A stretch of 64,000 nucleotides of DNA, from NCBI GenBank assembly GCA_963744315.1, contig CAVUTB010000018.1, positions 74,147 to 138,146 of the forward strand, read 5' to 3'. Positions 9,416 to 31,177 of the stretch are shown here, piece after piece (within the stretch, counting starts at the first letter, position 1; each line of letters begins with the position of its first letter). The notes beneath the pieces were generated by a model, which was given only the letters and a program-made list of their open reading frames with translations, did no database searches and had not been told where the DNA came from. Both the position numbers and the translations under genes were made by a program. The stretch comes from an uncultured Acidobacteriota bacterium. Lineage in GTDB: Bacteria > Acidobacteriota > Vicinamibacteria > Fen-336.

Positions 9416-9533
9416 GAATACCAGTCCAGAACGTCCGTTGGCCTCTTAGTTCGTCGTTGCTTTCCTTGTTTGTTTCGCCGTGTCCTTGCCGTTGGATCCC
9501 TTGTTTGTCCCGGTCCGGCGAAGGTGCTACAAG

Positions 9534-10028
9534 GTGCCTGGGGAAGAGACCGTGGCCGAGGCCGAACCGCCGCAGGTGCTCCTGGTCGAAGACAATCCCG
9601 ATCACGAGGAGCTGATCCGCCGGGCGTTTGCCGAGCGGCAGCCGAGGGTCGCGCTCGCCGTCGCGCGCCACGGCGAGGAAGCGCTCGACTACCTGCACCG
9701 CCGCGGCAACTACCAGGACCCGCGCACGAGCCCACGGCCGCGCCTGATCCTGCTCGACCTGCGGCTGCCGCGCGTCGACGGGCTCGAGGTGCTGGGCGAG
9801 ATCAAGTCGACGCCCTCGCTGCGCTCGATGCCGGTGGTGGTGCTCACCACCTCCGACTCCGAGCACGACGTGCAGCGCGCCTACGCGCAGCACGCGAACA
9901 GCTACCTGGTGAAGCCGGCCGAGTTCTCGCGCATCCGCGAGCTGATCGACCGCGTCGAGGGCTACTGGCTCGACGTCAACCGGCTGCCGGGCGACGGCTC
10001 GCGCCCTGAGACTGGGGTCAGGTCTTGA
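9534..10028 (+). CDS. CheY-like single-domain response regulator
   Basis: VLLVEDNPDHEELIRRAF...LILLDLRLPRVDGLEVLGEIK...VVVLTTSD...YLVKP. In-frame GTG at 9534; the track ORF starts at 9480. Confidence 0.8.
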   Translation: MPGEETVAEAEPPQVLLVEDNPDHEELIRRAFAERQPRVALAVARHGEEALDYLHRRGNYQDPRTSPRPRLILLDLRLPRVDGLEVLGEIKSTPSLRSMPVVVLTTSDSEHDVQRAYAQHANSYLVKPAEFSRIRELIDRVEGYWLDVNRLPGDGSRPETGVRS

Positions 10029-10075
10029 AATAGCGCATTGCACCCGGACAATGCGTCAATTCAAGACCTGACCCC
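10014..10075. repeat. REP/MITE-like nested palindromic element, copy 1
   Basis: GGGGTCAGGTCTTGAA ... TTCAAGACCTGACCCC is a perfect 16-bp inverted repeat enclosing CGCATTG-N8-CAATGCG. It overlaps the regulator's stop codon and sits between convergent genes. A near-identical copy lies at 30110-30170. Confidence 0.6.
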
Positions 10076-10078
10076 TAC

Positions 10079-11926
10079 TCACTTTCCGGCGATCGGACCG
10101 CCGGGCACGTTCGCGGCACGGTCGAGGCCGTGGCCCGCGGGGAACAAGCCCGGCAGCGAGACGGGCAGGCGCCCGCCGATCGGAGCCTCGCCCAGGAGAG
10201 CGCGCACCGCGGCCGCCTCGGGCGCGTCGCCGATCTCGTAGGTGACGAGGATCGCCGGCAGCTTCGCGCCCAGCTCTCCCACGTAGGGACTGCCGAGCGC
10301 GACGGTGACGAGCGGGCGGCGCGCGTCGTCGCGCGCGAGCGCCTCGAGCAGCGACTGCTGCCCGGGCGACAGGCCCAGCTTGCCGTTCGGGTCGGAGGCG
10401 CGCGTGAAGGTCGCGGCCACGATCGCGTCCACGCCCTTCGCCATCGCGCGCAGCAGGTCCAGCTCGGAGGCCGTGGTGCGGTCCGTCACCTCGACCGCGG
10501 TCAGCCCCGGCAGCCGCTTGCGCAGCTCCGGGATCAGCACGCGGCCGGGCGCGGCCTCGCGCCAGCCGTTGGCGGAATCCACCACCGACAGCAGCAGCAC
10601 GCGCGCCTTCTGCGGCAGCGCCAGCGGCACCTGGCCGCGCTCGTCCTTGAGCAGCGTGATCGCGCGCGAGGCGATCTCGACGGCGACCGCCTCGTGCGCG
10701 CGCCCGCCCACGCTCGCCGGCACCGCCTCGACGTCCACGACGCGGGAGCGCTGGAGCCCGAGCCGCGCCTTCGCCCGCAGGATGCGCTCGACGGAGCGGT
10801 CGAGCGCGTCCTTCGCGATCTCGCCGCGCTCGACCGCCTGCCTGATCCCGCGCAGCGCGGCCTCGGGGTCGGGCGAGTCGAGCACCACGTCGGCTCCCGC
10901 CTCGACCGCGAGCGCCGCCGCCTCCGCGGGAGTGAAGCGCTTGCTGATCGCGTGCATCGACATCGAGTCGGTGAAGATGATTCCCTCGAAGCCCAGCTCC
11001 TCGCGCAGCAGGCCGGTGAGGATCGGGCGGCTGAGCGTCGCCGGCCGTCCCTCGGTCGGATCGAGCGCGGGCAGCCGGATGTGCGAGGACATCACGGCGT
11101 CGATGCCCGCGGCGATCGCCGCCCGGAACGGCACGAGCTCCACGGCGTCGAGCCGAGCGCGCGGGTGCTCGACCACCGCGAGGTCGAGGTGGGTGTCGGT
11201 CGCCGTGTCGCCGTGGCCGGGGAAGTGCTTGGCGGTCGCGAGCATGCCGCCTTGCTGGATCCCGCGCATGTACGCCGTCGCCATGCGCGCCACCAGCTCG
11301 GGGTCCTCGCCGAACGAGCGGATGTTGATCACCGGGTTCTGCGGGTTCACGTTCACGTCGACCACGGGGTAGTAGTCCACGTGGACGCCGAGCGCGCGTC
11401 CCTCGCTCGCGCCGACGCGGCCCGCGCGCTCCGCGAGTGCTGTGTCGCGCGTCGCGCCGAGCGCCATCGCGCGCGGCATGCGCGTCGCGCCCTCCACGAT
11501 GTAGCCGGCCCCGCCCTCGAAGTCCGCCGTGAACAGCAGCGGCAGCGCCGAGGCCCGCTGCAGCCGGTTGAGCAGCGTCGCGATCGCGAGCGCGTCGCCC
11601 TTGATCGCCCGTCCCCCGGCGAGGCCGTAGACGGGATTGAGCAGCGCCGGCGGCAGCGCCTCGCCGCCGCCGAAGACGTGGAAGCCGCCCACGCGGCCCT
11701 CGCGTACGAGCCGCTCCAGCTTCTCCGAGGCCTCGCTGTCGATCGGCGTGTAGACGCCGTTCAGGCCCGGGACCACGAGCTGCCCGACCTTCTCGTCGAG
11801 CGTCATCCGGGCGAGCGTCTTCTTGACCCAGGCCGCGGCCTGCTTGTCGCTCGGATTCGGATCTCGCGCGACGGCCGCGGACGCGAGCAGGGCCAGCAGC
11901 AGGGCGGGCGGCAGCCGTCGGAGCAT
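10079..11926 (-). CDS. Glycoside hydrolase family 3 (NagZ / beta-N-acetylhexosaminidase-like), secreted
   Basis: Signal peptide MLRRLPPALLLALLASAAVA. GH3 motifs KHFPGHGDTATDTH and IIFTDSMSM. Confidence 0.85.
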   Translation of the reverse strand: MLRRLPPALLLALLASAAVARDPNPSDKQAAAWVKKTLARMTLDEKVGQLVVPGLNGVYTPIDSEASEKLERLVREGRVGGFHVFGGGEALPPALLNPVYGLAGGRAIKGDALAIATLLNRLQRASALPLLFTADFEGGAGYIVEGATRMPRAMALGATRDTALAERAGRVGASEGRALGVHVDYYPVVDVNVNPQNPVINIRSFGEDPELVARMATAYMRGIQQGGMLATAKHFPGHGDTATDTHLDLAVVEHPRARLDAVELVPFRAAIAAGIDAVMSSHIRLPALDPTEGRPATLSRPILTGLLREELGFEGIIFTDSMSMHAISKRFTPAEAAALAVEAGADVVLDSPDPEAALRGIRQAVERGEIAKDALDRSVERILRAKARLGLQRSRVVDVEAVPASVGGRAHEAVAVEIASRAITLLKDERGQVPLALPQKARVLLLSVVDSANGWREAAPGRVLIPELRKRLPGLTAVEVTDRTTASELDLLRAMAKGVDAIVAATFTRASDPNGKLGLSPGQQSLLEALARDDARRPLVTVALGSPYVGELGAKLPAILVTYEIGDAPEAAAVRALLGEAPIGGRLPVSLPGLFPAGHGLDRAANVPGGPIAGK

Positions 11927-24620: not shown

Positions 24621-30056
<5,436 letters not shown>

Positions 30057-30109: not shown

Positions 30110-30170
30110 GGGGTCGGGTCTTGAATCAGCGCATCGCCGTCGCAAATGCGTCAATCCAAGACCTGACCCC
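30110..30170. repeat. REP/MITE-like nested palindromic element, copy 2
   Basis: GGGGTCGGGTCTTGAAT...ATCCAAGACCTGACCCC, about 90% identical to copy 1. Lies in the divergent region between fadB and the YkuK-like gene. Confidence 0.6.
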
Positions 30171-30186
30171 GCATTCTCCTTGACAG

Positions 30187-30215
30187 GGCCTCGTTCGCTG
30201 CCTACCTTCTGGAAG
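30187..30215 (+). promoter_or_regulatory. sigma70-like promoter TTGACA-N17-TACCTT
   Basis: cTTGACAgggcctcgttcgctgccTACCTTctgg, with a consensus -35. Confidence 0.4.
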
Positions 30216-30221
30216 CTGTGA

Positions 30222-30434
30222 GAAGGAACGTGCGCCTTTATCGAGCGAACGCGACGCGGGCCGCGAGCCCACACGCGCCACGGGTCTGGTCCGGGCCAAA
30301 GAGCCGGGACTTGAACCGCGTGTGTGAGCTCGGCGTGTCCGGCGGGGAGGGGACGTCACCCTAGGCCTGAAACGAGGCAGTCGTTCGCTTCGAGGCCTTC
30401 CGGGGTGACCCCCGGAAGGCCTTTTGCTTTCTGG
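30222..30434 (+). ncRNA. Candidate ~210-nt leader RNA (riboswitch, attenuator or small RNA) ending in a strong intrinsic terminator
   Basis: Bounded by the promoter above and a 12-bp perfect GC stem (GGCCTTCCGGGG-tgac-CCCCGGAAGGCC) plus TTTTGCTTTCT at 30394-30434. The terminator is 57 nt upstream of the ATG of the next gene. Confidence 0.4.
30394..30434 (+). terminator. Rho-independent terminator
   Basis: 12-bp perfect stem, 4-nt loop and U-rich tail. It is strand-specific: the opposite strand has no U-tract. Confidence 0.7.
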
Positions 30435-30490
30435 CCTCCGGGTGGGGAGGGTGCGTTCGGGACGGAATCGAGAGAGGATTGGGGAGCCGT

Positions 30491-31102: not shown

Positions 31103-31177
31103 GGGTAGCTAGCTCAGTGGGTAGAGCGCCGAGCGGATAACTCGGAGGTCGCAGGTTCGAATCCTGCGGTTTCGTCG
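31103..31177 (+). tRNA. tRNA-like sequence whose acceptor stem does not pair (degenerate tRNA, remnant or assembly error)
   Basis: Canonical D arm (GCTCAGTGGGTAGAGC) and T arm (GCAGG-TTCGAAT-CCTGC). Anticodon arm CCGAG-CGGATAA-CTCGG. The 5' acceptor GGGTAGC is not complementary to the 3' GGTTTCG. Confidence 0.35.

Follow-up and report, generated by a model that had tools for sequence, protein, structure and literature searches.

In most descriptions, RAYT/REP systems are specific to one species and pass on vertically. Both IS200/IS605 and E. coli TnpA_REP act on ssDNA hairpin substrates by HUH/Tyr cleavage, and the REP/REPIN-RAYT systems themselves are said to have been set out by Nunvar 2010, Bertels & Rainey 2011, Ton-Hoang 2012, and Messing 2012 (structure 4ER8).

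Closest to the element discussed here are RAYT-like genes flanked by long TIRs, which the passages on this class in Di Nocera, De Gregorio & Rocco 2013 (PMC3733652) call “TIRtrons” encoding “TIRYTs.” According to the same passages, many TIRtron TIRs share GGGGWSAS and some are dispersed repeat families, Acidobacteria included; whether a TIRYT binds, cuts, or moves TIR repeats is listed there as open. Similarly, the relevant part of Quentin et al. 2018 (PMC6006769) gives TnpA_REP subclass 2.1 as long, with a C-terminal HTH, no nearby REP, and GGGG[AT][CG]A[CG] in its flanks. A MITE census of 183,232 genomes placed 97.4% of MITEs and 98.2% of MITE clusters within one genus (PMC11602168).

Here, we follow up a nested palindrome that is present twice in a 64-kb stretch of DNA (the window, meaning the whole stretch that was analyzed) and that the initial annotation took for a REP-like or miniature mobile family independent of position. 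That proposal holds: the same arms occur in many genomes, both copies are insertions, and the arms flank a REP-associated tyrosine transposase. On the evidence of its sequence, the element is a TIR-type repeat of TIRYT/RAYT subclass 2.1, a known but little-studied class, and the two window copies are very probably transposase-less mobile derivatives, consisting of two TIRs of a TIRtron and moved by a RAYT/TIRYT. In the scheme of Bertels et al. 2017 (PMC5581495), the transposase probably falls into RAYT Group 1.

The two copies

The features of the window that are referred to in the text are as follows.

9480..10028, plus strand: response-regulator gene (Pfam Response_reg), its last 4 codons and stop supplied by copy 1
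10014..10075, no strand assigned: hairpin copy 1, 62 bp, two TIR arms back to back, without coding capacity
10014..10029, plus strand: copy 1 left arm GGGGTCAGGTCTTGAA, containing the in-frame TGA at 10026-10028, with a TTGAAA -35-like box at its inner end
10033..10056, no strand assigned: copy 1 inner stem, GCGCATTG (10033-10040) and CAATGCGT (10049-10056), with an 8-nt loop
10060..10075, minus strand: copy 1 right arm TTCAAGACCTGACCCC, complementing the left arm perfectly
10079..11926, minus strand: GH3 glycoside hydrolase gene, convergent with the response regulator, its stop (10079-10081) 3 nt past the copy 1 right arm
27906..30056, minus strand: FadB-like gene, with copy 2 lying 53 nt upstream of its ATG (30056)
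30110..30170, no strand assigned: hairpin copy 2, 61 bp, older and slightly decayed, 1 mismatch per arm
30110..30125, plus strand: copy 2 left arm GGGGTCGGGTCTTGAA
30155..30170, minus strand: copy 2 right arm TCCAAGACCTGACCCC

Both copies lie where they had been placed, at 10014-10075 and 30110-30170, and the 16-bp outer inverted repeat of copy 1 is perfect, as had been claimed (GGGGTCAGGTCTTGAA/TTCAAGACCTGACCCC), with an inner inverted stem also present. The figure of “about 90%” identity between the copies was not borne out: counted on a pairwise alignment, 52/62 positions agree (84%), and 30/32 in the arms alone. Reading inward from either arm, the subterminal part of the window copies is TTGACGCATT / ATAGCGCATT, which is subfamily-specific. 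The outer end fits both GGGGWSAS and GGGG[AT][CG]A[CG], being GGGGTCAG in both arms of copy 1 and GGGGTCGG and GGGGTCAG in copy 2. The window contains 4 matches to the 16-mer arm at a tolerance of 3 mismatches, where 0.23 would be expected (0/100 shuffles reach 4), and a relaxed search of the 64 kb for the 13-nt arm core revealed no additional or degenerate arms.

When folded as RNA in both orientations, as the initial annotation had proposed, the copies form stable hairpins of -37 to -44 kcal/mol (copy 1, -43/-44 kcal/mol; copy 2, -37/-40 kcal/mol), with z-scores of -6.6 to -10.1. The corresponding ssDNA values are -26 kcal/mol for copy 1 and -19 kcal/mol for copy 2. Each strand of each copy folds into one long hairpin; an arm taken alone forms none. 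Rfam gave no match at the hairpin element at the gathering threshold, and only generic miRNA-hairpin noise, far below that threshold, at a permissive setting. In addition, copy 1 contains a promoter-like TTGAAA-16-GACAAT at 10025-10052.

Distribution of the arms

An exact scan for GGGGTCRGGTCTTGRA in 596 Gb, with one genome per species, returned at least 118 loci. Single matches to GGGGTCRGGTCTTGRA are expected by chance in this amount of DNA (an estimated ~1,100), and inverted pairs within 300 bp are not. The 118 listed loci hold 48 paired elements, 26 of them perfect and about 20 with 1-3 mismatches in the partner arm, which are 43-284 bp long and stand in DNA of 37-73% G+C. Those without a transposase sequence, 46-269 bp in length, are dispersed through intergenic DNA. 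The same arms were found in at least 14 bacterial phyla. By record title, the hosts include Acidobacteriota, Methylomirabilota/Rokubacteria, Nitrospirota, Planctomycetota (Scalindua), Gemmatimonadota, Actinomycetota, and Desulfobacterota, together with Alpha-, Beta-, and Gammaproteobacteria, Omnitrophota, Binatia, Atribacterota, Bacillota, Spirochaetota, Vulcanimicrobiota, and Uhrbacteria.

The half-site consensus continues for ~11 nt inward from the arm as WT-nn-GACA-TTT. Outside the GGGG, the flanks carry no conserved base (at most 40% at any position), and direct repeats in the flanks of 49 elements are at chance (k=1, 9 versus 12.2 expected; k=2, 5 versus 3.1). Neighbor clustering of the ORFs within 2 kb of paired elements gave no shared gene family. 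The element is dispersed in multiple copies, with 2 in the 64-kb window and 3 in 8 kb of locus L072, and nested and tandem arms are found in L012, L093, L055, and L110. The subterminal motif TTGACGCATT / ATAGCGCATT was seen only in the Acidobacteriota loci L027, L124, and L125, which suggests a lineage-specific subfamily to which the window copies would belong.

Neither the hairpin element nor the transposase was found in the viral contigs scanned or in a collection of sequenced plasmids, where blastn gave no match. The exact 16-mer appears in no paper in the searchable full text; the published TIR sequences stand in a figure.

The transposase between the arms

The link to a transposase became visible only once the distance allowed between arms was widened to 2.5 kb. 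In five genome loci, from different phyla, the arm directly adjoins an ORF of ~283 aa: L003 (Marinagarivorans), L030 (Omnitrophota), L095 (Desulfobacterales), L106 (Nitrospirae), and L020 (Desulfobulbaceae, decayed). These ORFs match Pfam Y1_Tnp with E values of 1e-12 to 1e-15 and have a C-terminal HTH (HTH_23). The proteins score 80-97 bits (cutoff 80) with the NCBIfam model NF047646, “REP-associated tyrosine transposase,” and only 20 bits with the IS200 model. They are ~50% identical to one another, with the HYH motif and the Tyr invariant. A single-sequence search of the PDB with the transposase gave no match and a profile was required, with which 4ER8 (E. coli TnpA_REP) proved to be the best solved relative, the HUH and Tyr regions aligning.

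An independent set was assembled by protein alone (alignment plus the patterns HAYCLM and NHYHL..E) and comprised the 80 best metagenome loci, at 52-84% identity. Arms, with up to 3 mismatches allowed, were counted only where the flank was 60 nt or longer. On this basis, an arm lies upstream of the transposase start in 68/76 loci, with a gap of 23-102 nt that is mostly ~30, and an inverted arm follows the end of the protein match in 64/75, with a gap of 0-77 nt that is mostly 6-36. By chance, the association of arm and transposase would be expected at an estimated ~0.06 loci. A search for RAYT-type transposases had been among the checks proposed at the outset, and arms do flank such a gene in the five genome loci and in most of the 80 metagenome loci. 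The transposase has more than 8000 homologs, and the contigs that carry them are very often ~1 kb long, a length that would fit a multi-copy unit or flanking repeats that break assemblies.

Across 146 half-sites, the arm core at positions 2-13 (GGGTCAGGTCTT) is 95-100% conserved. Positions 13-16 vary among loci (TGAA, TGCA, TTAA, and others), and at these positions the left arm equals the right in 47/64 loci. The subterminal motif beside the transposase gene, WTATCAnTTTT, is that of the short elements. A -10-like hexamer (such as TATATT or TAGACT) begins 16-18 nt past the inner TTGAAW of the arm, with the ATG ~6 nt further on, a spacing that suggests a TIR-embedded promoter and a leaderless transposase mRNA.

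Some loci hold altered versions of this unit. The 284-bp element of L104 still encodes transposase residues 244-277, which makes it an internal-deletion derivative of the transposase unit, and as such it links the long unit to the short hairpins. In L020, the transposase gene is frameshifted and ~80 codons are missing. The arms of L057 (Uhrbacteria) are perfect, their subterminal sequence matches, and they enclose exactly one gene, of 126 aa and of the glyoxalase family.

Closer to the window, no transposase of this family was found in the 64 kb or in ~140 kb of related Vicinamibacteria-like loci (L119-L126). None of the top 120 transposase homologs is labeled Vicinamibacteria, and no transposase-adjacent TIR among the loci compared has the TTGACGCATT subterminal motif.

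Comparison with known systems

The likeness to TIRtrons is extensive. Both have a RAYT-like Y1/HUH gene with a C-terminal HTH and inverted repeats at a fixed distance from it, and in both the TIR is also dispersed, often dimeric or clustered, with a wide and patchy taxonomy that includes Acidobacteria. Beyond the TIRtron passages of PMC3733652 go an end of 12-16 nt that hardly varies over at least 14 phyla and 34-73% G+C, the insertion polymorphism among relatives, the deletion derivative, and the apparent TIR promoter.

The REP/REPIN-RAYT systems of E. coli and Pseudomonas likewise involve short extragenic palindromes that flank, and are presumably moved by, an ssDNA-specific Y1 transposase; their mobile form is a long hairpin, they often lie past gene ends, and they make no target duplication. 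Classical REPs, however, are imperfect palindromes of 20-40 bp with an unpaired GTAG/CGTC tag, two of which make a REPIN, whereas the present arm has neither hairpin nor tag. REP sequences are species-specific and the present arm is common to many phyla, and the transposase is ~120 aa longer than that of REP/REPIN systems and has an HTH in addition. Of the features of a REPIN, the present element shows the long hairpin and the RAYT association, with units that are plain TIR halves and not REPs. A classical REP was rejected because the conserved GTAG/CGTC tag is lacking; a minus-strand GTAG before copy 1 is not common to the other copies.

With IS200/IS605 elements and PATEs, the element has in common a Y1/HUH transposase, the recognition of ssDNA hairpins, the absence of a TSD, and short non-autonomous derivatives. 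The ends of IS200/IS605 are separate subterminal hairpins, direct on one strand and without TIRs, whereas the present ends are inverted. As regards PATEs, which insert 3' of a fixed tetra- or pentanucleotide, the flanks of the element have no conserved nucleotides and its ends are inverted, with junctions too diverged for defining an insertion target. Classical MITEs (Correia, RUP, ERIC-like) are alike in their TIRs, small size, intergenic position, and origin by internal deletion of an autonomous unit; the present element differs from them in having neither a TSD nor a DDE parent and in having ends that cross phyla. Since it lacks a target-site duplication, it is not a classical MITE.

Several other candidates were considered and set aside. 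The Tn3-family IR shares the GGGG start, but the inner TAAG and the 5-bp TSD are missing, and the R/L box consensus of an integron attC site does not fit. A shared GGUCAGGUC suggested mimicry of SRP RNA; the stem, however, pairs along its full length, and the conservation is accounted for by the association with a RAYT. A sequencing-adapter artefact is at odds with the varied interiors and with the presence of the element in one isolate genome. Finally, the flanks are enriched in inverted matches, as for insertion into palindromic targets, but RAYT units show the same lineage-specific TIR extensions of 2-5 nt, so that these matches are more simply explained as a longer TIR.

Insertion history

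Orthologous loci were obtained via close homologs of the GH3 protein (L119-L123) and of FadB (L124-L126). The best named homologs of the proteins flanking the copies are from Vicinamibacteria (Acidobacteriota), and the window GH3 protein itself has no exact match on record.

At the copy 1 site, the element is absent from L122 and L123 (97% GH3 identity), where 3 nt separate the response-regulator and GH3 stops, and from L120 (91% identity) and L121 (88%), where the two stop codons are 13 nt and 31 nt apart. L119 (97%) has the 10-nt deletion found at the 3' end of the window's regulator gene, together with the last bases of the element and the flank GACCCCTAC, and the other 56 bp are missing. 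We read this remnant as a probable partial loss after insertion; it may instead be a long-read assembly error at the palindrome. At the copy 2 site, the element is present in L124 with perfect arms and in L125 with one arm mutated (97% and 96% FadB identity, respectively), and it is absent from the orthologous site in L126 (89%).

Set against these relatives, the loci show both window copies to be lineage-specific insertions without target duplication. The comparator junctions are 3-11% diverged, and the insertion cut sites and target are therefore not definable from them. By the same comparison, the element is evidently a recent insertion. From its presence or absence at the sites in relatives and from the state of the arms, copy 2 is evidently the older, with decay begun, and copy 1 is young and perfect. 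A pattern of young and perfect, old and decayed copies is as would be expected for selfish insertions followed by neutral drift.

Probable effects on neighboring genes

Copy 1 does overlap the TGA of the response regulator, which lies in the left arm at 10026-10028, and it does adjoin the GH3 stop, 3 nt away, as had been noted from the start. A 10-nt deletion in the 3' end of the response-regulator gene puts the ancestral TGA out of frame when the frames are read against L120-L123. On this reading of the frames, the response regulator would now run 4 codons into copy 1 and end at the TGA of the arm, which gives it a new C-terminus. Copy 1 would also put a very stable 3' hairpin on both convergent mRNAs.

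The further idea that copy 1 is a bidirectional terminator failed the canonical test. A terminator scan found nothing terminator-like at copy 1 on either strand, the tails being CTACTCAC and CAGTCTCA; with no T-run next to the stem on either strand, copy 1 is not a canonical terminator.

The placing of copy 2 in a divergent promoter region stands, since it lies between the ATG side of the FadB-like gene and an opposite-facing TTGACA box. It is 7 nt beyond a conserved TAGAAT box and 10 nt before the TTGACA, which faces an RNaseH_like (PF04308) gene. Copy 2 would thus split the conserved TAGAAT box on the fadB side from the conserved TTGACA of the opposite promoter, sitting between divergent core promoters, and because the two boxes are separated, the fadB -35 region may be changed. 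The local effects of both copies would be by-products.

Alternative explanations

Selection by the host could have made the family if the hairpin were an RNA element, acting as a bidirectional terminator or as a 3'-end stabilizer for the response-regulator and GH3 mRNAs. Copy 1 does stand exactly between convergent stops, its fold is very stable in both orientations, and REPs downstream of genes are thought to stabilize mRNA, as the passages on them in PMC3733652 have it. Nevertheless, neither strand has the T-run and the terminator scan is empty at copy 1, while four close relatives keep both genes, 3-31 nt apart, hairpin-free. Copy 2 lies in a divergent promoter region, the arms of this older copy collect mismatches, and the same 16-mer around a transposase gene would be left unexplained, so that we consider a host-selected RNA element improbable. 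An operator for a dimeric DNA-binding regulator of the adjacent genes would suit the perfect palindrome and the promoter setting of copy 2, but hardly a copy 1 that lies between gene ends. The neighbors are, moreover, unrelated across 48 elements and both copies are insertion polymorphisms, and we give the operator next to no credence.

The remaining explanations accept mobility and differ as to its agent. A classical MITE derived from a DDE-type IS, moved by cut-and-paste with target-site duplication, would have the perfect TIRs, variable interior, and small size that are seen here, and one Paraglaciecola contig mixes copies with ISAs1- and IS110-like gene fragments. Direct flank repeats are, however, at chance in 49 elements, no DDE transposase recurs beside the arms, and the gene that the arms bracket is a Y1/HUH transposase; this origin is very improbable. 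It could also be that the hairpins are independent repeats and a preferred insertion target of the transposase unit, much as REPs are for some ISs, with the arms around the gene representing a split target. The nested and tandem arms (L012, L093, L055, L110), an IS110-like fragment between arms in L010, and the glyoxalase-family gene enclosed in place of a transposase in L057 speak for this. Yet the distances between arm and gene are near-constant (~30 nt upstream, mostly 6-36 nt downstream), the TTGAAW of the arm, with a -10-like box at a distance of 16-18 nt, seems to belong to the promoter of the gene itself, and the L104 deletion derivative joins the long and short forms. A separate agent for spreading the hairpins would still be needed, and we think a split target unlikely by some distance.

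Proposed mechanism

We return to the preferred reading, that the window copies are transposase-less derivatives moved by a RAYT/TIRYT. The TIRtron is a unit of ~0.9 kb in which a long HTH-bearing TIRYT (TnpA_REP subclass 2.1, Y1/HUH) lies between GGGGTCAGGTCTTGAA ends with a WTATCAnTTTT-like subterminal motif. The window copies are at the short end of the size range, each consisting of a pair of TIR halves joined by a short loop. The conserved 12-16 nt end would be recognized by a transposase of this family whose gene lies in another part of the genome. By analogy with IS200/IS605 and E. coli TnpA_REP, the likely substrate is the ssDNA hairpin formed by the paired arms, at which the HUH/Tyr site would cleave and then rejoin the element at a new place without target duplication. 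Strict end recognition by a conserved and probably horizontally exchanged enzyme would keep the arm invariant in hosts of 34-73% G+C, which may explain how it survives across very different base compositions.

A broader view, which we put forward tentatively and regard as possible but on the whole doubtful, is that this RAYT subclass, with its invariant end of 12-16 nt, is active and passes between phyla, and is not a domesticated RAYT inherited vertically. If so, the TIR may also serve as the -35 box in the promoter of a leaderless transposase mRNA, and the ends may mobilize whatever lies between them: gene fragments, a passenger gene (for which the glyoxalase-family gene of Uhrbacteria is an example), or nothing at all, as in the 46-bp hairpins. 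In that case, the comparison of the window copies with relatives would be evidence for natural transposition of TIR-type RAYT repeats.

Conclusions

The long HTH-bearing RAYT subclass gains an end that is defined at the sequence level and differs very little among at least 14 phyla. A soil Acidobacteriota lineage supplies two dated insertions and one partial loss, alongside a deletion intermediate between long and short forms from elsewhere. Together, these are comparative evidence, drawn from sequences, for the mobility of TIR repeats, which the relevant passages of PMC3733652 list as untested. The near-invariant end makes in vitro binding and cleavage tests straightforward, since one substrate of 16-27 nt should suit many enzymes. 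In the window itself, a response-regulator gene apparently owes its present 3' end to one copy of the element, and the other copy sits within a divergent promoter region; for the family as a whole, the conserved end is a possible marker for tracing horizontal spread.

The copy 1 junction in the window and its relatives

Compared with two relatives (L122, 9244-9260, and L123), the response-regulator gene of the window carries a 10-nt deletion close to the 3' end (window 9990-10028), and the ancestral TGA is therefore out of frame. Its present stop is a TGA lying within the left arm of copy 1, which gives the protein a new tail, PETGVRS. In a 97% relative (L119, 11850-11880), all that remains of copy 1 is GACCCC together with the flank, and the other 56 bp are replaced by GCGC. 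The regulator ORF of that relative has no stop close by, and no gene was called there. Either the palindrome was lost imprecisely, or the remnant reflects an error of long-read assembly.

Surroundings of copy 2

Two features lie on the far side of copy 2:

Window 30181-30436, + strand: stretch running from a promoter-like sequence to a terminator-like hairpin, immediately beyond copy 2
Window 31104-31176, + strand: tRNA-Ile(GAT), a lone gene between the RNaseH_like and Band_7 genes

The first of these opens with a promoter-like TTGACA-17-TACCTT, after which approximately 220 nt are strongly conserved among relatives. The last part of this conserved sequence is a strong terminator-like hairpin with a T-run (30392-30423). 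The region folds with a minimum free energy of -118 kcal/mol (z -3.85), and a search of Rfam returned no family match for it. Situated upstream of the RNaseH_like (PF04308) gene, it is a candidate for a small RNA or an attenuating leader.

The interval between fadB and the GH3 gene is ~6.5 kb longer in the window than in L124, a relative's locus at the FadB site. Separately, an 89% relative has an insertion (L126, 17513-21430) that the other relatives lack; it includes a phage-type integrase, an IS91-type Y2 transposase, and a fragment of an rve-family transposase.

What the arms may carry and where they may end

At several metagenome loci chosen by similarity to the REP-associated tyrosine transposase (RAYT), including L130, L138, L174, L181, L193, and L199, the region ~60 nt upstream of the transposase start contains an arm whose inner TTGAAW is 16-18 nt ahead of a -10-like hexamer. 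The ATG follows ~6 nt past that hexamer, with no Shine-Dalgarno sequence. The transposase promoter thus appears to lie within the arm (TIR), and a leaderless mRNA is possible.

Arms do not always enclose an intact transposase gene. A 284-bp element (L104, 152-435) keeps only the HTH-coding end of the gene, and at another genome locus (L020, 1-590) the gene adjoining an arm is frameshifted and internally deleted; both have the appearance of transitional forms linking the full unit to the short hairpin. On a Candidatus Uhrbacteria contig (L057, 2974-3399), perfect arms with matching subterminal sequences enclose exactly one gene, which encodes a 126-aa protein of the glyoxalase/bleomycin-resistance family and has both its start and stop codons within the subterminal TIR regions. 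It is possible that this is a passenger that has replaced the transposase. The isolate genome of Paraglaciecola sp. MB-3u-78 has five arms within a single 2-kb contig. By our reading of the sequence, one element there interrupts a putative ISAs1-type transposase gene, and a putative IS110-like N-terminal fragment is located between arms; the contig appears to be a nest of mobile-element debris.

Nested sets of arms (two left, three right) and local tandem duplications of ~22 nt that include flank sequence were found at genome loci such as L012 (639-900) and L093 (1608-1790). Similarly, nested or tandem arms adjoin transposase genes at L164, L179, and L140. Nested insertion and slippage are both possible origins.

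Among 49 elements and the arms flanking RAYT genes (e.g., L169, L130, L132, and L005), the palindrome frequently runs 2-5 nt past the outer GGGG, in bases that are lineage-specific. Of the 49, 9 have inverted flank matches of 3 nt or more, against 0.8 expected, so in some lineages the true element end may be a few nucleotides farther out than the conserved arm.

Abundance of the transposase

A protein search returned more than 8000 transposase homologues at E < 1e-20. Among the listed protein hits (P0241-P0360), very many sit on contigs of only ~1-2 kb, which points to a transposase unit present in multiple copies or to assembly breaks at its repeats.
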